This document shows positions 1,076-20,278 of a stretch of 29,986 bases of DNA, one piece after another. Source of the DNA: a virus; the UHGV virus genome UHGV-0038722. One strand, given 5' to 3'. Each line of letters opens with the position of its first letter. Position 1 is the first letter of the stretch. The notes under the pieces are model-generated. The model was not told the origin of the DNA and made no database searches. It was given only the letters and a program-made list of their open reading frames with translations. A program made the translations under genes and the position numbers.

Positions 1076-1999
1076 TCAGTAGTTATGAACTGAAGGAGGT
1101 AATTCTTTATTCTTAAGTCTCATCCATGCGGAAAGATTCGTTGGTCCGTCTGGCTCATTGATATCAACATCTCGTGTGTGATTGATTAAAACGTCTCTTG
1201 CCATATCGATAATACGGGAGAACTCATAACCGCAGTCATGACATCTGCCGGAATAGTTCGATTGAATTTGTTTTAGTGCCGGATACAGTTCGCGGAATAA
1301 TGCCTGTGAGCGGTTGGCATAATCCCATAACCATACAAGGCTGTTTGCTTCTTTTGCAGAAAGCTCGTTTGCTTTCTTCTCTTGTTTGCCGATTAACTCG
1401 CCTTCAAGCGGAACGCGAGCTGCAAGTGACAGAGCTTCGGTAAACTGCTCATCGCTGATTTCTTTGTATGAACACCCAAAACGAGATTTCAGTGACGACC
1501 ACATGGTGATCATCGCCTTAGCCTGCTTTTCTTTTGGCAGAGACTGACCGCGACTCATGACGAGTTGTTTAATGGCTTCCTGCTGTTCAGTGGTGATTTT
1601 ACCCGGCAACGCCTTTTTAGCTTTGCGTGGGTTAACTACATGGCCTTTAGTCCAGTAGTCGTAGAGCACATCGTCACACTCTTCCTGATACTGGATTACC
1701 TTGTCGCGGATTTCAGGGCGGACTTTGTTAGGACTGATGCTGTTCAACCAAGCTGCCAATTTTCGTAAAGCCATACAAATCATGGCTTGCACCCCACCGG
1801 CAGAAGGTATGGTGATTTCCACCATACCCTTCGAGAAGCGTTGAGAAATCTTCTTATGTTGAGATTTCCAGTCTAGCCCCATTCCCTCAACGATAGGTTT
1901 CATTGGGGTATACGGTTCGCCGTTGTGATTGACAACATAAAGCTCTGCGCCGTGGAATGGTACATTGATAGTAGATACTGCTGTTGCTATACTTTTCAT
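1076..1999 (-). CDS. ant: Antirepressor Ant-like protein (AntA-type N-terminal domain, Cys-containing C-terminal region)
   Basis: 307-aa ORF; N-terminal region resembles AntA/Ant antirepressor domain; located after arc as in P22 immI; AGGAA SD upstream. Confidence 0.7.
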   Translation of the reverse strand: MKSIATAVSTINVPFHGAELYVVNHNGEPYTPMKPIVEGMGLDWKSQHKKISQRFSKGMVEITIPSAGGVQAMICMALRKLAAWLNSISPNKVRPEIRDKVIQYQEECDDVLYDYWTKGHVVNPRKAKKALPGKITTEQQEAIKQLVMSRGQSLPKEKQAKAMITMWSSLKSRFGCSYKEISDEQFTEALSLAARVPLEGELIGKQEKKANELSAKEANSLVWLWDYANRSQALFRELYPALKQIQSNYSGRCHDCGYEFSRIIDMARDVLINHTRDVDINEPDGPTNLSAWMRLKNKELPPSVHNY

Positions 2000-2066
2000 G
2001 TCGTTAATTCCTATGCGTGGTTTTACGATACCGAAGCCCTGACTGTTACCGCAGTTGGGGCTTCAA
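1997..2066 (+). ncRNA. Putative sar-like antisense RNA covering the ant start codon and RBS
   Basis: Plus-strand sigma70 promoter (-35 TTGATA 1965-1970, 17-bp spacer, -10 TATACT 1988-1993) firing antisense into ant start; hairpin 2033-2064 followed by U-rich stretch; architecture matches P22 sar (inference). Confidence 0.35.
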
Positions 2067-2266
2067 CTTTCTGCTCTATCAGTTATATCTTTCCCTTCAT
2101 ATACTTCACCTATATTGCTAATGCTGGCAGAACATCCAAGATGCTTGTATCTTATGATGTCCAACACGCAGTCACTACACAGCATCCGACCTGTTTCTTT
2201 AGAGTAAATGTATGTTTGATCAGCGTCTGATTCGCTAATGCCGCAGAAACAACATTCTTTACTCAT
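2063..2266 (-). CDS. Small cysteine-rich (zinc-ribbon-like) protein between arc and ant, unknown function
   Basis: 67-aa ORF with CCFCG...CSDC motifs; ATGA start/stop overlap with arc indicating translational coupling. Confidence 0.55.
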   Translation of the reverse strand: MSKECCFCGISESDADQTYIYSKETGRMLCSDCVLDIIRYKHLGCSASISNIGEVYEGKDITDRAES

Positions 2267-2403
2267 ACCGTTATCCCCTCTCTCTTCAGGCTGTCCATCA
2301 CCCGTTTAATTACTTCTGCACTAAATGAGCGACACTCTTCCTTTGCTTTCTCTTCAAGGATTTTTTCTAACTTCTCTGGCATACGCAGTGTTTTTACCTT
2401 CAT
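2263..2403 (-). CDS. arc: Arc-like ribbon-helix-helix repressor
   Basis: 46-aa ORF (below ORF-track size cutoff; hand-translated MKVKTLRMPEKLEKILEEKAKEECRSFSAEVIKRVMDSLKREGITV); resembles P22 Arc (RSVNSEIYQRVMESFKKEG); GGAGG SD; divergent from mnt. Confidence 0.75.
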   Translation of the reverse strand: MKVKTLRMPEKLEKILEEKAKEECRSFSAEVIKRVMDSLKREGITV

Positions 2404-2415
2404 TGCATCCTCCGT

Positions 2416-2480
2416 TGTATGTGGTACGCATACATAGTATTTAGGTACGCATTGATAGTCAATAGATACCTACATATCCT
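2416..2480. promoter_or_regulatory. Divergent overlapping promoters Pant (minus) and Pmnt (plus) with two operator-like inverted repeats
   Basis: Pant: -35 TTGACT (2457-2462) and -10 TACTAT (2434-2439) on minus strand, 17-bp spacer; Pmnt: -35 TTGATA (2452-2457), -10 TATCCT (2475-2480); inverted repeats tgtatg-N7-cataca (2416-2434) and attga-TAG-tcaat (2451-2463). Confidence 0.6.
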
Positions 2481-2508
2481 GTGGTAAAAAATTATTCAGG
2501 ATGTGCCG

Positions 2509-2760
2509 ATGTCTGATCGTAAGTACAAAAACCCTCAAGTGAATCTGAGGCTTCCTGTAGAGATAAAGGAGCGTCTTATTGAACTGGCTGAGGCTAATTC
2601 TCGTTCATTAAATGCTGAGATGGTCGCGGCACTTGAAGCGTGGACCGAAAAAAATAAACACATTCAAGCACTAGACCTTGCAACTATAGCATCACGATTG
2701 ATAGATCTTGAACGCGATGTTGAGACGCTAAAGACCATGTATGGTAAGGATGAAAAATGA
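2509..2760 (+). CDS. mnt: Mnt-like ribbon-helix-helix repressor
   Basis: RHH N-terminus (PQVNLRLPVEIKERLIELAEANSRSLNAEMVAAL) plus C-terminal helical region; divergent from arc as in P22 immI; ORF track starts at 2503, AGGA SD favours ATG 2509. Confidence 0.75.
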   Translation: MSDRKYKNPQVNLRLPVEIKERLIELAEANSRSLNAEMVAALEAWTEKNKHIQALDLATIASRLIDLERDVETLKTMYGKDEK

Positions 2761-3122
2761 GTGACAATTCAGGATACTCAGACGATCAACTGCGAGAGGC
2801 TGAATATCGCAAGGCGCTATCGTCTATAACTACAAAGGTTCTCGACTCTTTCTTGAGAGCTAAAGGTGTTCCAGACGAATGCCCAATGTGCGGGCAGTCT
2901 GAAATGGTTGTCCCTCAAGTTCAATTTGTAAATCAGGATAATGGAAAAGACATCATGGGTAGGCATGCCCATTATGGTGAATATATAAAAAACGAAGATG
3001 AATCATTCAACCCAATAAATTACTCTTATCATGTAATTTGCAAGCATTGCGGATACATTATGCAGTACAACACAGGTGTTGTGTTAAGCTGGTATCTAAG
3101 GGAGAAAAACAGCAATGTCTAA
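2757..3122 (+). CDS. Hypothetical zinc-ribbon protein, first gene of mnt-coupled accessory cassette
   Basis: 121-aa ORF; ATGA overlap with mnt stop; CPMCG and CKHCG motifs; no family recognised. Confidence 0.6.
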   Translation: MSDNSGYSDDQLREAEYRKALSSITTKVLDSFLRAKGVPDECPMCGQSEMVVPQVQFVNQDNGKDIMGRHAHYGEYIKNEDESFNPINYSYHVICKHCGYIMQYNTGVVLSWYLREKNSNV

Positions 3123-3450
3123 GTTGAAGTTGGCTTACGATGCTGACAATCCTTTTCCGAATAGCGAATTTGCCCCCATCGGAATTGAAGACTCAGAAGA
3201 GCCAGCACATGGAGGTGGCAATGGAGGAGGATCAGATATGAACAGTAGAATGACCCGCATTGAAACGATTGCCGCCAACCAAGAAAAGCTAATATCAGAA
3301 ACTAGAAAAGAGTTGATTGGCATCCGTGGCGACATGCACGGAATGGAGCGTCGCCTAGCAGATAAGATGGACGAGAATCAGAAGTGGCTTATCGCCCTCA
3401 TGATATCTGCAATCCTTGCTCCGCTGTTTATTGCCTTGGTTACCAAATAG
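3115..3450 (+). CDS. Hypothetical tail-anchored membrane protein (C-terminal TM helix)
   Basis: 111-aa ORF overlapping upstream gene by 8 nt; GGGAG SD; Gly-rich linker GGGNGGG; hydrophobic C-terminus WLIALMISAILAPLFIALV. Confidence 0.6.
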   Translation: MSKLKLAYDADNPFPNSEFAPIGIEDSEEPAHGGGNGGGSDMNSRMTRIETIAANQEKLISETRKELIGIRGDMHGMERRLADKMDENQKWLIALMISAILAPLFIALVTK

Positions 3451-3471
3451 CTACTAACTAAGGAGATTTGT

Positions 3472-3795
3472 GTGTATACAACAGTTATCGTGATAGCTAT
3501 CGCACTCATTGTGGTTCAGTACCAACTGGCATCTTTAAAACAAAAGATATCTGACCTCAAGACTGAGAACGAAGCACTTAAAAACTCAATAAAAGATGAG
3601 AAGAACAAACTATCATTCACTATATCTGATATTGAGCAATCCATTGAAATTATTGAGAATAATATTAACAGACTAAAAAAAGAAGATATTCATGAAATCA
3701 ATGACAATATCAAGGATTTGAAATCTTGGCTTAGGAATGTAGGACAAATCGCCACATCAACACGAGATAAGCTCAATCCATCCATGGATGATTAA
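3472..3795 (+). CDS. Hypothetical membrane-anchored coiled-coil protein (N-terminal TM helix)
   Basis: 107-aa ORF, GTG start with AGGAG SD 6 nt upstream; N-terminal TM YTTVIVIAIALIVV then K/E/N-rich heptad-like sequence; strongly AT-rich. Confidence 0.55.
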   Translation: MYTTVIVIAIALIVVQYQLASLKQKISDLKTENEALKNSIKDEKNKLSFTISDIEQSIEIIENNINRLKKEDIHEINDNIKDLKSWLRNVGQIATSTRDKLNPSMDD

Positions 3796-5922
3796 TTACT
3801 CCTGTGCTATTCCGCTTAGCGACGCTACAATGCCAGCCCTCGCTAAGCGATTGAACTCTTCGTTTCCAACTGCATCACGTATTGCTTTTACGGCGGCTTT
3901 ATTTGCCATAAATCTGCGTTCCGCCGCCGCTAATGCTTCTTTACTTCCGCCAGCTCTTACTGCTTTCGTGGCTTCCTGAACTGCTTTCTCTATCGCATAT
4001 CGACCGCTACGCGTGGTGGCAATTTTAGATACAGCACCTTTTAACCCGGCGCCAACTAAAGCACCCGCGGCAGCGCCTGCAATACCCCCTCCAGCGCCAC
4101 CAACAATGGCACCTGATGTTGAGTTGGCAATTGCATTTAACACTGTTGATGTGACGTTGGATAAACCAGCATCCAGATCGCGTAGTACATTGGCAGTTCT
4201 CCCTGTTCTTTCAATATACTGCTGAGGTTTCACTGCCGCTCTTGCAAGAGTGCCATATGCATCAGCAATTCTTCCGAGATCTGAGGAATATCTGCTAATG
4301 GCTTTTACATTTTGTGGGGTAAGTATCCCTGCGATATGGTTAATTCCTGCTGCATCAGCTTTGCCACCACGTACACCATGCGAGATAGCATCTTGCAACA
4401 TTGATGATATAGCAGGAACACGCTCTGATTCTGGCAGCGCGCGGATCATAGAATGGAACCCAGCAGGACCATTAAGACCTTTAGCTGACGATGATTGAAG
4501 GGATTTTACTCCATTCGTAATCAGTGCATCTGTTGCCAAATCACGCCCGAAAACAGACTCTGCACTCTCTTGTGCTGATAACCTCGCTTTAGACAGATCA
4601 TTAGCTTTCTGCCAGTCATCAAGAAATCCGCCGTTTTCCGCCATTGTGCGCATATCATCAGTAATTGCCCGGCGTATTTCCCCTGCTCTCCTTGCCGCAT
4701 TTGCCTCTCCGCTACGCTTATATTTTTGCTCCGCATCAGCAAATTTCGCTCTCCATGCTTTCATGCCATCAAATGTTACTCCACCTTGATTGTTTGCCTG
4801 AACAAACTGTTTCATTTCAGGAGTAAGTGGTATGCCAGCAGATCGCTCTGCCTGAATAACGGCATTACCATTTAGCATTCTTGCTTTTTGATTTGGCATT
4901 GTTGACCGCACGTCATCCCATGCCGCGCGCTCGGCATCCTTCATCTGATCAAGATTTTGAAGAATCCTTTGTTTTATAGCCGCACTTTTTTCTGATGCCG
5001 TTCCAGATGCGGCCCCAAATTCATCAAGGTTTCGACTTAACTTTGATGATATTTCGTTAAATGCTGCCTGATGGGCGTCCTGAACAATTCCTGGTGTTGA
5101 TGCCAATGCGCCTTCAGCTTGTGCAATTCCACGACTTCCAGATCGCATTCCTGGTGTTAATGCGTTTATATCAATTCCAGCAGACTCAGCCGCTTTTGCT
5201 ACATCTTCGGACACATTAGCGGCCTGACTGGCAATTGACTGACGCCCAGCACCTGACTTTGCCATCCTGGAAACATCATTAGCAGAATTCAGTGCTGCAC
5301 CACCAAGAGCCTGTGAAACCCTTGGCGCAATAACGCGCCCGACACCTGAAAGAACGCCTTGAGCACCAATATTGATACCACCGTTAATGGCAGCATTTTG
5401 TGCAAAATCGCCCTCCTGATTTGCAGCATCAGCAAGAGAACCTGCAATCATGTTTCCTGCGGAACCGATATCTCCAGCGAGCTTTGCTGGCGCTCCAGCA
5501 GCTTTTGCCGCTGTGCCAATTGGCAGGAGATACCCACCAATTGTTTCACCGGCTTGCGCGTAAGGGTCTGTCGGTCGATCGACTGGACGATAGACATCAT
5601 CCAATACTTTTGGCCCACCAAGCCCCTGACTGATTGCATTAATCAGACTTGCGCCACCCTGCAATACGTCAAATGGTATGTTTACCAGACCACGACCAGC
5701 CTGTTCTGCAATTTGCCCTGCACTTTGACCACCAGTGAGCCAATCGCCAGCTTGTTGCATCAATGATGGTTCTTCACGCGCTGGTTCATTATTGGCCTGA
5801 TTAACTGTTTGTTGCTGAACAGCCTGACCAGCAAAATACTCATCAATGGCGGTGCCAATATCTTCCGTGCTCGTACCATCAGGGAAGGTAAATGTCTTTC
5901 CGTTTGCAGTTACTTTCATCAT
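3796..5922 (-). CDS. Ejection (injection) protein, P22 gp16-like
   Basis: 708-aa ORF, Gly/Ala-rich; last of gp7-gp20-gp16 triad by position and N-terminal similarity to P22 gp16. Confidence 0.75.
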
Positions 5923-7250
5923 TCCACCGTAAATTGAATGCCTGATTTTGAGGTATATGATCCGGATTGACTCTGCTGCTGTTGGGTATTTGTCGGTTGT
6001 TGGTTATTGCTCTGTTGTTGCGCAGGCTGCTGAATATCTTCATACAGCTTGGCTTTTCTGGATTGCAATTGCTTAGTTAGTCCGCTGGGGAGAGAATCTC
6101 CATAAGTTGAAAGATAATCATCCATTTGCTGGTTAAACTTTTCGCCTTCAGTATTTGCCATCAGTTTTGAGGTGTTGATTAAGTCTTGGACTTGCTCATT
6201 ATTCAGCATCTTGCCGTTAGATAATTGGCTAACATAGTTACCAAGTGTGCCAAATATTCCATCAGTGCGTTTTACCTGCACTTGCTCACCTTCGCGTACC
6301 ACAGATTGCGGATCCAGCGATTTCATATAGTTGAAAATCATTCCCAACTGCGCGGCTGGAGTGTTGCGCTTCCCAAGGGCTTGTAGGTTGTCAGAAGCAC
6401 TGCGCATTGCAGAATAATTCTTTGAGAACCCATTAATATCACTATTCAGATCTCGAACAAGTTTTGGGTCAATCTTTCCGCTTTCCTGTTGTTTCATCCC
6501 TAATTCCTGCAACTTCAGGGCTACGTTATCATTATGCATTTGTGCCCGCTGAGCCCTGTCTAGTTGAGCGTTTTGGATATTTGCCCATCCTCTCGCGTTC
6601 TCCATGTCAGCCTGACGGATGCTTTCATCCAATCGCCCTTTCTCAAGTTGGCGACCAACCATCTTATCCTGATAATCCAGCATTTTATCCGGACCAACAG
6701 CCCCTAGCGTCATAGTAGTCAGCATGTGTGATAGCTGCTCTGGATTCTGAATACCTGTCTGAATCATCCAGTCAGCATTCGCCCCCACGCGATTTAACCT
6801 GTCCTTGTTGTCAGTAATGAATTTACTGTAGGCTTCCGGTCCCTGAGAAAGAGCGACGTTAGCCCTCATGGCTAAATCGCCCATATCGTTGCGTTGCTGC
6901 TCATTAAGACCGGAAAACGCCTGTTGTGCCTGCGCAACAAACGCTGGATTTTCCTTGGCAAACTTAAATAGTCCCGATGGATCACCAGAAGCCCATGCAT
7001 CAGCATGAACCTTATTGAACGCATTAATCGCTTTCTGTTGCTGTTCCTGCTTATAAATATCAGCAACTCCAGCCAGACCACGTAACGCGGTCAGACCAAC
7101 GTTATTTGCACCTGAGCGAGCCAGTTCATTGTTTTCGCGGATCAGACCAAGCGTTGCGTTAATGTCGCTTGCCTTTGGCGCATTCTCATTTTGCGTACCG
7201 ATGCCAGCCAGAAAACCACCAGAATTAATACCCTGTTGCCACGTAGCCAT
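5919..7250 (-). CDS. Ejection protein, P22 gp20-like
   Basis: 443-aa ORF between gp7-like and gp16-like genes; Q-rich C-terminus; overlaps gp16 start by 4 nt. Confidence 0.75.
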
Positions 7251-7260
7251 TGATTAACCC

Positions 7261-7953
7261 TTAAAACAGTGAACCAAGCAGACCAAGACCAGCACCAATA
7301 CCAGCACCCCACGGAGTTGATAGCTCGAGAGCACTGGCTATGCCACCACCCAAAAGCGCACCGGATGCAGCACCACTAACCCCCTGCTGCAATGCTGACG
7401 GTCGGTTGGCGTTTGCCGCAGCCAGCGCCGCGCTTTGCTGTGAAATCTGACTCATGTTGTTGGCATATGTTTGCCCGGCGTTTGTCTGCCCCTGAAGAGC
7501 GCCAAGACCGATATTTGCCAGGTTGTTGTAATTGTTCATTTGTCCAGATAGCCATTGCTGACCAAGCGTTGGTGCGATTGTTGCTAACTGATTACTGGTT
7601 GCGGTGGAACCCAATCCACCTGTTGCTTCCGCTGCCGCCAGACTCTGATAGCGAGCCTGACCTGCAAGGTCTTTATACTGCTGAGAGTTGTAATACTGGT
7701 TAAGTGCCTGACCTTGCCCATCCAGAGACGATAAGTTCTCGAGGCTGCCGACATACTTCTCAGCCAGAGGAGTAAACGGCTTCAGGTTATTCATGATGGT
7801 GTTGAACTGCTGATTTTGCAGGTCTGCGGCATACTTCTGAGCTTCTGCGGCATACTTTGCACTTTTATCAGAACTGCCACCTTTCCCGCCTTTTTCAGGG
7901 CAATAAGGTTCCTCGCCGCGCAGTTTTCTGCCCAGCTTAAATGCATATAACAT
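7261..7953 (-). CDS. Ejection protein, P22 gp7-like
   Basis: 230-aa ORF; N-terminus MLYAFKLGRKLRGEEPYCPEKGGKGGSS and length match P22 gp7 from memory. Confidence 0.8.
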   Translation of the reverse strand: MLYAFKLGRKLRGEEPYCPEKGGKGGSSDKSAKYAAEAQKYAADLQNQQFNTIMNNLKPFTPLAEKYVGSLENLSSLDGQGQALNQYYNSQQYKDLAGQARYQSLAAAEATGGLGSTATSNQLATIAPTLGQQWLSGQMNNYNNLANIGLGALQGQTNAGQTYANNMSQISQQSAALAAANANRPSALQQGVSGAASGALLGGGIASALELSTPWGAGIGAGLGLLGSLF

Positions 7954-19060: not shown

Positions 19061-19498
19061 TTATTTCAGGCACTGAGTCCTGATGTACTCCTGCAGGTAG
19101 TTAACCTGCGCGGTTATCCTGTCTATTCCACTTCGGAGACGGTAATAATTGAGTTCAGCATCTGCTGTAAGTCTTGGGCTTTCTCCATCGCCCATGCTGC
19201 TGGCTCCGGTCGTTGACTTTGCACAGGTGGCGGAGACTTGCAGGCGCTTACGACCAGCAGAAACATCAGCACGGAGACTTTCGATAGTCGCGTTAGCATC
19301 AGCAAGCTCCTTTGTATATCTGGCATCGAGTTCTGCTACATCACGTTGACGTTTCTGCATGTCAGCGATAATGGATGCGGCCTTATCACGCTGCTCTTTG
19401 TAGGCGATGGCGTTATCACGGTAATGATTAACAGCCCATGACAGGCAGACGATGATGCAGATAACCAGAGCGGAGATAATCGCGGTTACTCTGCTCAT
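19061..19498 (-). CDS. Rz: Spanin inner-membrane subunit Rz
   Basis: 145-aa ORF, N-terminal TM, coiled coil; near-identical to lambda Rz N-terminus from memory; overlaps R. Confidence 0.9.
19123..19299 (-). CDS. Rz1: Spanin outer-membrane lipoprotein Rz1 (embedded in Rz, +1 frame)
   Basis: Embedded ORF; signal peptide with lipobox ...VVSAC, proline-rich mature region; start taken at internal Met MLTRL. Confidence 0.75.
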
Positions 19499-19971
19499 AC
19501 CTCAATCTCTCTGACCGTTCCGCCTGCTTCTTTGAATTTTGCAATCAGGCTGTCAGCCTTATGCTCGAACTGACCATAACCAGCGCCCGGCAGTGAAGCC
19601 CAGATATTGCTGCAACGGTCAATTGCCTGACGAATATCACCACGATCAATCATCGGCAAAGCGCCACGCTCCTTAATCTGCTGCAATGCCACAGCGTCCT
19701 GGCTTTTCGGAGAGAAGTCTTTCAGGCCAAGCTGCTTACGGTAGGCATCCCACCAACGGGAAAGAAGCTGGTAGCGTCCGGCGGCTGTTGATTTGAGTTT
19801 GGGGTTTAGCGTGACAAGTTTGCGAGGGTGATCGGAGTAATCAGTGAATAGCTCTCCGCCAACAATGACGTCATAACCATGATTTCTGGTTTTCTGACGT
19901 CCGTTATCAGTTCCCTCTGACCACGCCAGCATATCGAGGAACGCCTTACGTTGATTATTGATTTCCACCAT
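19495..19971 (-). CDS. R: Endolysin R (lytic transglycosylase), lambda R-like
   Basis: 158-aa ORF essentially identical to lambda R from memory ([51 protein letters not shown]...). Confidence 0.95.
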
Positions 19972-20278
19972 CTTCTACTCCGGCTTTTTTAGCAGCGAAG
20001 CGTTTGATAAGCGAACCAATCGAGTCAGTACCGATGTAGCCGATGAACACGCTCGTTATATAAGCGAGATTGCTACTTAGTCCGGCGAAGTCGAGAAGGT
20101 CACGAATGAACCAGGCGATAATGGCGCACATCGTTGCGTCGATTACTGTTTTTGTAAACGCACCGCCATTATATCTGCCGCGAAGGTACGCCATTGCAAA
20201 CGCAAGGATTGCCCCGATGCCTTGTTCCTTTGCCGCGAGAATGGCGGCTAACAGGTCATGTTTTTCTGGCATCTTCAT
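19955..20278 (-). CDS. S: Holin S (lambda S107/S105 dual-start class I holin)
   Basis: 107-aa [42 protein letters not shown]... identical in pattern to lambda S; Met1-Lys2-Met3 dual start. Confidence 0.95.

Follow-up and report, generated by a model that had tools for sequence, protein, structure and literature searches.

A conserved zinc-ribbon/tail-anchored protein gene pair and hkcB as candidate protection modules behind mnt in a P22-like prophage

Between mnt and gene 16 of an E. coli P22-like prophage lie three small genes which, in our tentative best account, represent two independent cargo elements of a hypervariable 'ant moron', namely a conserved pair, ORF1/ORF2, and hkcB. Judged by position and architecture, the pair and hkcB are most likely lysogen-expressed, membrane-acting protection modules, operating through abortive infection or exclusion. 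The window analysed is a stretch of 29,986 nucleotides (UHGV virus genome UHGV-0038722), the relevant features of which are listed in Table 1.

Organization of the locus

The three plus-strand ORFs 3' of mnt encode proteins of 121, 111 and 107 amino acids. The stop codon of mnt and the start codon of ORF1 share an ATGA (2757-2760), and ORF1 and ORF2 overlap by eight nucleotides (3115-3122), as the original prediction had described. The assignment to the position of P22 sieA was also sound. The gene order in P22 is 16>, <sieA, <orf59a, <mnt; the window shows this order in the opposite orientation, and the three ORFs occupy the mnt-gene 16 interval, the site of orf59a and sieA in P22. What else occupies this slot belongs for the most part to the envelope (SieA, a lipoprotein, a secreted protein and a 2-TM protein), and the immI region is a recognised moron hot spot (PMC2629481). 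In RefSeq, mnt starts at the ATG at 2509 and its product is termed 'Arc family DNA-binding protein'.

The dN/dS values of 0.05 for ORF1 and 0.10 for ORF2, with dS saturated in both cases, and 0.27 for hkcB argue that all three are real genes under purifying selection. Small size, the AT-richness of hkcB and unassigned functions might suggest chance frames or decaying remnants, but these values, full-length conservation across genera and the retention of translational coupling effectively refute that idea.

The proposal of a single three-gene cassette did not survive. A mosaic boundary, located by megablast at about position 3456, separates ORF2 from hkcB. The pair also occurs without hkcB, whilst epsilon34, CUS-3 and SEN22 carry hkcB and the gene 16 end without ORF1/ORF2. 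The full arrangement is present in only nine of 5426 E. coli genomes. E. coli ws5-3 (NZ_CP110511) matches the three-gene stretch at 99.9% identity.

A divergent Pant-like promoter (2462-2434, minus strand) and operator-like palindromes overlap with a putative Pmnt. This layout is similar to that of P22 Pant/Pmnt; the operator-like sequences have no homology to the P22 operators. From mnt to the end of hkcB the plus strand holds a single weak terminator-like hairpin (3129-3147, within ORF2). Since the putative promoter faces mnt and only this hairpin precedes the end of hkcB, cotranscription of mnt, ORF1, ORF2 and hkcB is plausible, and we infer that in a lysogen Pmnt most probably drives the transcription of mnt together with all three genes. 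P22 provides a parallel in orf59a, which is likewise transcribed behind mnt.

Table 1. Features of the window that bear on the mnt-gene 16 interval
Feature	Position	Strand	Evidence or remarks
ant	1076-1999	-	immI region (1076..2403); P22_AR_N/C
sar antisense RNA	2001-2068	+	Rfam RF00262, 85.7 bits
67-aa CxxC ORF	2063-2266	-	immI region
arc	2263-2403	-	immI region; PF03869
Putative Pmnt, sigma-70-like TTGATA-17-TATCCT	2452-2480	+	Consensus scan; function putative; faces mnt
mnt, Arc/Mnt-family ribbon-helix-helix repressor	2503-2760	+	PF03869, E 3.2e-10; phrog_795
ORF1, cytoplasmic 4-Cys zinc-ribbon protein, first gene of the pair	2757-3122	+	phrog_4293, E 3.6e-31
ORF2, tail-anchored membrane protein	3115-3450	+	phrog_6324, E 5.6e-30
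hkcB (ORF3), N-terminal TM and helical K/E-rich protein	3472-3795	+	phrog_5962, E 1.4e-58, 1-107 of 109 profile positions
Gene 16 homologue (ejection/DNA transfer protein)	3796-5922	-	phrog_770, E 3.4e-233; convergent with hkcB
Lysis cassette: holin, endolysin, Rz, Rz1	19061-20278		Complete, canonical; 16 kb from ORF1/ORF2

ORF1 and ORF2

The zinc-ribbon cysteines that the original prediction had noted in ORF1, in the motifs CPMCG and CKHCG, are invariant in 48 homologues (C42, C45, C95 and C98). The family comprises 157 representative clusters among 1.84 billion proteins. The AF2 model of ORF1 (pLDDT 79.7) has no fold match in the PDB or BFVD. A search with the defence HMMs of PADLOC v2.0.0, which cover systems described up to 2023, gave a single weak partial match, to Cas10 (E 0.012). 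We considered a Lar-type anti-restriction protein and rejected it; TIGR03655/PF14354 scored 17.7 bits against a cut-off of 39.6, a generic zinc-ribbon similarity only.

ORF2 consists of a variable N-peptide (residues 1-32), a Gly-rich linker (33-41, HGGGNGGGS), a long helix and a hydrophobic C-terminal TM helix (92-110, KD19 2.63); linker and TM helix had both been correctly predicted. In the AF2 model residues 1-40 are disordered and 41-110 form one helix, and the model is not informative beyond this. No PADLOC v2.0.0 defence HMM matches ORF2. The protein resembles phrog_689 'holin' (E 1e-5) and XhlA (PF10779; 20.7 bits, E 4.7e-4), the latter over residues 83-103 only and below the gathering threshold of 34.7 bits. 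XhlA-like matches at E<=0.01 were obtained for eight of 11 ORF2 homologues, the best at 8.8e-7, and close homologues are annotated by NCBI as 'hemolysin XhlA family'. We regard ORF2 as a putative, remotely XhlA-like protein. The XhlA similarity rests partly on the TM segment and the coiled coil. Alignment with other ORF2 types by hhalign gave a probability of 96%.

A conserved two-gene module

ORF1 and ORF2 are adjacent in all 14 distinct loci that were read; the two genes overlap or are separated by no more than 3 nt. These loci belong to Enterobacterales prophages of P22-like, lambdoid, P2-like, siphovirus and myovirus type, and they point to a conserved two-gene module that is separate from hkcB. 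The pair lies directly behind mnt in the window and in locus L005. In ENT1 (Enterobacter) and Klebsiella michiganensis it directly follows an S24-type cI repressor, the position of lambda rexAB, and in another locus it lies between a P2-type C repressor and int. Expression in the lysogen is more credible because of these copies behind cI-type repressors and inside a P2-type C-to-int operon. Further copies are located behind ant-like genes or have been inserted, flanked by terminators, into clusters of tail genes. The tail-cluster copies are bracketed by strong terminators, a moron signature, and a simple promoter scan detected no sigma-70 consensus or convincing promoter upstream of them. In siphoviruses the pair often lies in a group of lipoprotein morons, a short way upstream of the tape-measure gene.

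Several phages have the pair co-oriented with late tail genes or behind ant; its expression may therefore be partly or even wholly lytic. A search of all copies revealed a LexA box upstream of the Pantoea copy only, which suggests that this copy is under SOS rather than lysogen control.

ORF1 identity tracks the identity of the ORF2 N-peptide with a Spearman coefficient of 0.59 but that of the ORF2 C-terminal part with only 0.06, both from pairwise comparisons that are phylogenetically non-independent. An example is provided by loci L008 and L010, in which ORF1 is 98% identical, the N-peptide 67% and the C-terminal part 18%. The pattern indicates that the N-peptide co-varies with ORF1 and that the C-terminal half of ORF2 is swapped independently.

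hkcB

ORF3 can be identified by its sequence as hkcB, a previously named gene that is independent of ORF1/ORF2. It is 99% identical to epsilon34 gp14, 97% to CUS-3 hkcB and 53-57% to HK620 hkcB (BLASTP E 3.5e-31 for the last). We found no difference from these relatives in length or in the position abutting gene 16. The earlier view that none of the three proteins belongs to a known family is thus only partly right; ORF3 is hkcB, whereas ORF1 belongs to phrog_4293 and the distantly XhlA-like ORF2 to phrog_6324, both function-unassigned families. The hkcB family is itself without an assigned function (PMC2629481). Our literature search returned no functional study for hkcB, for the PHROG or WP identifiers, or for XhlA combined with defence terms.

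The gene starts with GTG, with AAGGAG 8 nt upstream. An N-terminal hydrophobic helix (residues 4-22, KD19 2.2) and a GC content of 33%, compared with 48% for the window, bear out what had been predicted for ORF3. Its stop codon is adjacent to that of the convergent gene 16 (3795/3796). The same arrangement is seen in HK620, CUS-3, epsilon34 and SEN22, and of the 338 E. coli genomes that gave a match, most have hkcB and the gene 16 end together but lack ORF1/ORF2. The original prediction had further envisaged two oppositely anchored membrane proteins acting together. As ORF2 and hkcB are inherited separately from each other, there is no longer a basis for such joint action.

With PADLOC v2.0.0, hkcB gave only coiled-coil-type matches (E>=6e-4). 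Taken over all three proteins, PADLOC, NCBIfam and Pfam produced nothing but zinc-ribbon, coiled-coil and XhlA matches below threshold. The protein resembles Rz-type i-spanins in having an N-terminal TM helix followed by a helical K/E-rich region. An Rz-like i-spanin was nevertheless rejected; the PHROG matches reached only E 1.4e-3 to 2e-3, no o-spanin gene is embedded or adjacent, and Rz/Rz1 are encoded elsewhere in the window.

Proposed function

Our preferred explanation, which we hold tentatively, combines a composite locus of two cargo elements, transcription of the three genes with mnt, a RexAB-like or blocking role for the pair and an exclusion-type role for hkcB. We propose that soluble ORF1, as a sensor or regulator, would dock on the ORF2 N-peptide on the cytoplasmic side of the membrane. 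ORF2 would be tail-anchored in the inner membrane, its helix/TM part serving as the effector there. When a second phage infects, the complex might perturb the membrane, an abortive infection with RexAB-like logic, or alternatively it might block an inner-membrane step of infection. hkcB, beside gene 16 in the sieA slot of P22, would probably be a separate, exclusion-type single-pass membrane protein. A protective reading is supported by the conservation of the pair, its positions in lysogeny operons, the moron signature, the N-peptide co-variation, the XhlA link, purifying selection and the envelope proteins that mostly fill the slot otherwise.

The comparison with lambda RexA/RexB is one of organization. 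Both pairs comprise a cytoplasmic and a membrane protein, and the ENT1 and Klebsiella pairs are co-oriented directly downstream of cI. Unlike RexA/RexB, to which they have no sequence relationship, ORF1 and ORF2 are far smaller proteins, with a single TM helix in ORF2 compared with the four of RexB. Neither Rex nor any other defence model in PADLOC v2.0.0 gave a meaningful match to the three ORFs.

A bolder formulation, which we consider rather doubtful, is that the pair would be the first representative of a prophage immunity system with two components that is widespread in Enterobacterales and Vibrio but as yet undescribed. Its components would be a zinc-ribbon sensor, a docking peptide with a poly-Gly hinge and interchangeable tail-anchored, holin-like effectors. 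Produced from mnt, cI or C operons, they would bring about membrane failure on superinfection as a miniature, modular RexAB analogue, with hkcB an independent SieA analogue directed against the gp16 conduit.

Should the pair prove protective, prophage-encoded immunity would gain a system of just two genes, very small and easy to transplant, its naturally shuffled sensor-docking and effector parts would offer a handle on the evolution of such modules, and an XhlA-like protein of Gram-negative hosts would acquire a function. The locus would also mark the positions next to mnt and next to gene 16 in P22-like prophages as separate cargo sites. hkcB, named since the HK620 genome paper, would be an obvious sieA-type candidate for those E. 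coli P22-like phages without sieA.

Alternative explanations

SieA-like superinfection exclusion, in which inner-membrane proteins block the gp7/gp20/gp16 conduit of incoming P22-like phages and the cell survives, is an unlikely explanation. [quoted passage not shown] ORF2 and hkcB share with it the mnt-gene 16 slot and a predicted membrane localisation, hkcB is tightly linked to the 3' end of gene 16, and the placement of siphovirus pairs near the tape-measure gene is consistent with such a role. Set against this, BLASTP of the three ORFs with P22 SieA (type A only) gave nothing better than E 0.65. Homology to SieA (E at least 0.65), orf59a or hkcC was considered and rejected; as regards sieA and hkc relatives, which the original prediction had named as evidence against itself if found for all three proteins, ORF3 matches hkcB and none matches P22 SieA. 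P22 sieA also has its own promoter, with the mnt terminator between orf59a and sieA, whereas the window genes are coupled to mnt. ORF1 is cytoplasmic, and a conduit-specific target is unlikely for ORF1/ORF2 because the myovirus-, siphovirus-, P2-like and lambdoid prophages that carry the pair have unrelated injection machinery.

A lysis or lysis-timing accessory of the phage's own lytic cycle, with ORF2 as an XhlA-type holin partner and ORF1 as its regulator, seems to us quite improbable. XhlA and SPP1 gp24.1 (PF10779) of Bacillus phages cooperate as second holins with another holin in cell killing (PMC6316719). Like them, ORF2 is helical in its cytoplasmic part and has a single TM at the C-terminus, and its XhlA-like and 'holin' PHROG matches, the many copies in late operons co-oriented with tail genes and the LexA box of the Pantoea copy fit such a role. 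ORF2 differs in its extra N-terminal peptide and poly-Gly linker and in its sub-threshold Pfam score. Whereas XhlA is partnered by the XhlB holin and an endolysin, ORF2 is partnered by a zinc-ribbon gene and occupies lysogeny or moron positions outside the lysis cassette. In the pair-carrying loci examined there is no endolysin or holin neighbour; the one 2-TM gene that adjoins the pair, in L005, is an unrelated one. Moreover, the window already encodes the canonical lysis genes (Table 1), and its pair runs antisense to the late operon, in translational coupling with mnt, the lysogeny repressor gene. Other copies lie behind cI or a P2-type C repressor.

A regulatory accessory of immunity I (ant/arc/mnt), acting for instance by membrane tethering or sequestering of a factor, is highly improbable. 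Around other copies of the pair, ant, arc and mnt are all missing, and in a known moron hot spot such as immI (PMC2629481) linkage can be positional. What favours it is linkage of the pair to arc/ant/mnt-type genes in several loci that are otherwise unrelated, namely the window and L005, SPN3UB/S107, Klebsiella phi6.1 and a Serratia prophage. We note that SPN3UB and S107 are two near-identical Salmonella phages.

Organization of the region behind mnt

The window corresponds to the late region of an Escherichia coli P22-like (Lederbergvirus) prophage, reversed with respect to the P22 map. Nine complete E. coli genomes carry prophages 99.7–99.9% identical to the region, in which RefSeq labels all three genes behind mnt as hypothetical protein. 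The original prediction treated these genes as a single cassette at the P22 sieA position. Its structural particulars were borne out, namely the sizes of 121, 111 and 107 amino acids, the ATGA overlap of mnt with ORF1 (2757–2760), the 8 nt overlap of ORF1 with ORF2 (3115–3122), the CPMCG and CKHCG motifs of ORF1, the glycine-rich stretch and C-terminal hydrophobic helix (residues 92–110) of ORF2, and the N-terminal hydrophobic helix (residues 4–22), helical K/E-rich remainder and AT-richness (GC 33%, against 48% for the window) of ORF3. The position is also correct, the P22 order being gene 16, sieA (with its own promoter), orf59a and mnt. Since the mnt terminator of P22 has been placed after orf59a, there is a precedent for a gene co-transcribed behind mnt.

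The single cassette, however, cannot be maintained. A megablast comparison placed a sharp mosaic boundary at about position 3456, 16 nt upstream of the ORF3 start, which splits ORF3 from ORF1 and ORF2, and each part is found without the other. The segment 3456–3900, comprising ORF3 and the end of gene 16, is 98–99.6% identical in epsilon34 and CUS-3 and explains most of the 338 matching E. coli genomes; the full arrangement occurs in only nine of 5426. The gene 16 to gene 9 region has been described as a hypervariable 'ant moron', with ten types in sixteen genomes (Villafane et al., PMC2629481).

Principal features of the window
Feature	Position	Strand	Remarks
Tailspike N-terminus	~704 to 1	minus	
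ant	1076–1999	minus	
sar antisense RNA	2001–2068		Rfam, 85.7 bits
67-residue CxxC ORF	2063–2266	minus	phrog_7150, E = 3.4e-50; uncharacterized PHROG
arc	2263–2403	minus	
Divergent promoter-like sites	between arc and mnt		
mnt	2503/2509–2760	plus	
ORF1	2757–3122	plus	zinc-ribbon protein
ORF2	3115–3450	plus	tail-anchored membrane protein
ORF3 (hkcB)	3472–3795	plus	
Genes 16, 20 and 7	3796–7953	minus	ejection proteins; convergent with ORF1–ORF3
Holin/endolysin/Rz/Rz1 cassette	19061–20278		complete

The immunity region (immI) has features of its own. The 67-residue ORF, with cysteines CFCG...CSDC, shares the 4 nt at its start with the end of arc; P22 lacks a gene at this place, and the sar RNA overlaps the 3' end of the ORF rather than an arc–ant junction. 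The arc–mnt intergenic region (2416–2473) has no homology to its P22 or epsilon34 counterpart and carries its own palindromes, TGTATGTGGTACGCATACA and ATTGATAGTCAAT, and a direct repeat, GGTACGCAT, which suggests a different operator specificity.

hkcB and the slot adjoining gene 16

ORF3 is hkcB, a member of a named but uncharacterized family (phrog_5962, E = 1.4e-58), sharing 99% identity with epsilon34 gp14, 97% with CUS-3 hkcB and 53–57% with HK620 hkcB. In every phage compared the gene abuts gene 16 whatever its other neighbour, be it a HicAB-like pair (SEN22), a lipoprotein gene (epsilon34), two unrelated ORFs (CUS-3) or hkcC (HK620). Other occupants of the slot between gene 16 and mnt are mostly envelope proteins. 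In strain E200086 a diverged mnt–ORF1–ORF2 block is followed by an unrelated gene in place of hkcB (5131–5358 of that locus). This gene encodes a 75-residue protein with a charged C-terminus and two TM helices, a topology like that of class II holins, and its reading frame overlaps a diverged gene 16 at the end of the latter.

Another P22-like prophage, in E. coli ET734, has a different gene (3358–3675 of that locus) linked to mnt through an identical ATGA overlap. The 3' side of mnt is therefore a site where translationally coupled cargo has inserted repeatedly. The 105-residue product of the ET734 gene has a signal peptide and is therefore probably periplasmic.

A conserved and modular gene pair

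Searches by tblastn and with profiles located ORF1 and ORF2 together in the Salmonella phages SPN3UB and S107, Klebsiella phage ST101-KPC2phi6.1, Enterobacter phage ENT1 and prophages of Pectobacterium, Pantoea, Yersinia, Klebsiella, Serratia, Raoultella and Salmonella. An ORF2-type gene follows the ORF1 homologue in all 14 distinct loci with sequence examined, with a 1–11 nt overlap or a 3 nt gap; the pair is thus a conserved module. The ORF1 family, so far undescribed, counts 48 members in a word-indexed search, and at E ≤ 1e-3 a set of 1.84 billion proteins yields 157 representative clusters of it. Its sources are Enterobacterales and Vibrio; every member is named 'hypothetical' and none of the Pfam domains matches.

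All ORF2-type proteins share a 17–32-residue N-terminal peptide, frequently ending in D-[FYW]-P-x-H, a glycine run, a long helix with a conserved Met/Leu-Glu start and a C-terminal TM segment trailed by 0–4 residues. AlphaFold2 predicts residues 1–40 of ORF2 to be disordered and 41–110 to form one helix. Profile–profile comparison relates the window type to the other types (96% probability, E = 3e-9). ORF2 resembles XhlA in architecture; XhlA, like SPP1 gp24.1, is a 'second holin' anchored by its C-terminus, harmless singly and lethal together with a two-TM holin (PMC6316719). Pfam XhlA matches eight of 11 ORF2 homologues at E ≤ 0.01, and relatives 70–75% identical to the C-terminal two-thirds of ORF2 match PF10779 and bear the NCBI name 'hemolysin XhlA family protein'. 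ORF2 itself, however, scores 20.7 bits, below the cut-off of 34.7, and has no lysis-cassette context.

Across 13 loci, the pairs of which are not phylogenetically independent, ORF1 identity tracks that of the N-terminal peptide (Spearman 0.59) but not that of the helix/TM part (0.06). SPN3UB and S107 are 98% identical in ORF1, 67% in the peptide and only 18% in the C-terminal part, whereas the window and the Klebsiella phage are 71% identical in the latter and only 25% in ORF1. On this pattern we take the glycine run to be a recombination joint that connects an ORF1-linked part to an exchangeable membrane part. Binding of the N-terminal peptide by ORF1 would be the simplest reading.

Genomic positions and expression

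In the window and E200086 the pair immediately follows mnt and is translationally coupled to it. ENT1 and two Klebsiella michiganensis lambdoid prophages have it right after an S24-type cI repressor gene, in the same orientation, which is where lambda has rexAB, and a Raoultella P2-like prophage has it between the genes for a P2-type HTH repressor and the integrase. The strongest evidence at hand that the pair would be expressed in the lysogen is its occurrence behind lysogeny repressors in these three independent settings. Further copies follow arc/ant-type genes in SPN3UB, S107, the Klebsiella phage and a Serratia remnant. An HP1/P2-like prophage carries the pair at its end, where two different host flanks adjoin it, and in siphovirus- and myovirus-type prophages strong intrinsic terminators flank copies lodged within the tail gene clusters.

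The case for expression in the lysogen is tempered by the tail-cluster copies, which share the orientation of the late genes and two of which showed no consensus promoter upstream, and by the Pantoea copy, where a near-consensus LexA box, CTGTATTAAAATACAG (3924–3939 in L014 and L015), precedes the ORF1 homologue by about 60 nt. No LexA box lies within 400 nt in any other pair-carrying locus.

In the siphovirus-type prophages (L008, 5218–5938; L010, 4783–5624; L012, 4656–5045) one or two genes for lipoproteins or secreted proteins, one with a weak likeness to BamE, follow the pair and closely precede the tape-measure gene, in what looks like a cluster of envelope-directed morons.

Possible function

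Tentatively, and at somewhat less than even probability, we favour a joint reading in which the pair is protective cargo expressed in the lysogen. ORF1 would dock on the ORF2 peptide at the inner face of the membrane; the helix/TM part would be a holin-like effector, released or activated upon superinfection, leading to abortive infection with RexAB-like logic; and hkcB would be an independent envelope protein in the sieA slot adjoining gene 16. SieA is an inner-membrane protein, with escape mutations in the gp16 and gp20 C-termini (PMC10883804). The pair forms a conserved, modular unit with suggestive genomic positions, while its protective function is inferred throughout. No homology of the three proteins to SieA, orf59a, hkcC or Lar was found, and PADLOC v2 models gave only weak partial or coiled-coil-type matches. 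A literature search, with the prophage screen of Brenes & Laub (2025) outside its scope, returned no paper on ORF1, ORF2 or hkcB. Both the pair and hkcB may belong to the small membrane-acting protection modules known from prophage morons.

A non-lethal exclusion system is a less likely account. That the pair is a lysis-timing accessory for the phage itself is rather improbable; the complete lysis cassette already present and the repressor-linked positions of the pair disfavour such a role. We give little credence to an accessory of the immI circuit, which the places behind mnt and arc/ant-type genes might bring to mind, and almost none to chance ORFs: purifying selection acts on all three genes, with dN/dS at 0.05 (ORF1) and 0.10 (ORF2) relative to a prophage of 81% DNA identity and at 0.27 for ORF3 relative to HK620.

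Directly behind the glycine run of ORF2 is a nearly invariant methionine (residue 42), taken as the start in many database annotations (70–72-residue versions); ORF2 might conceivably have a dual start of the kind reported for SPP1 genes 24.1 and 26.
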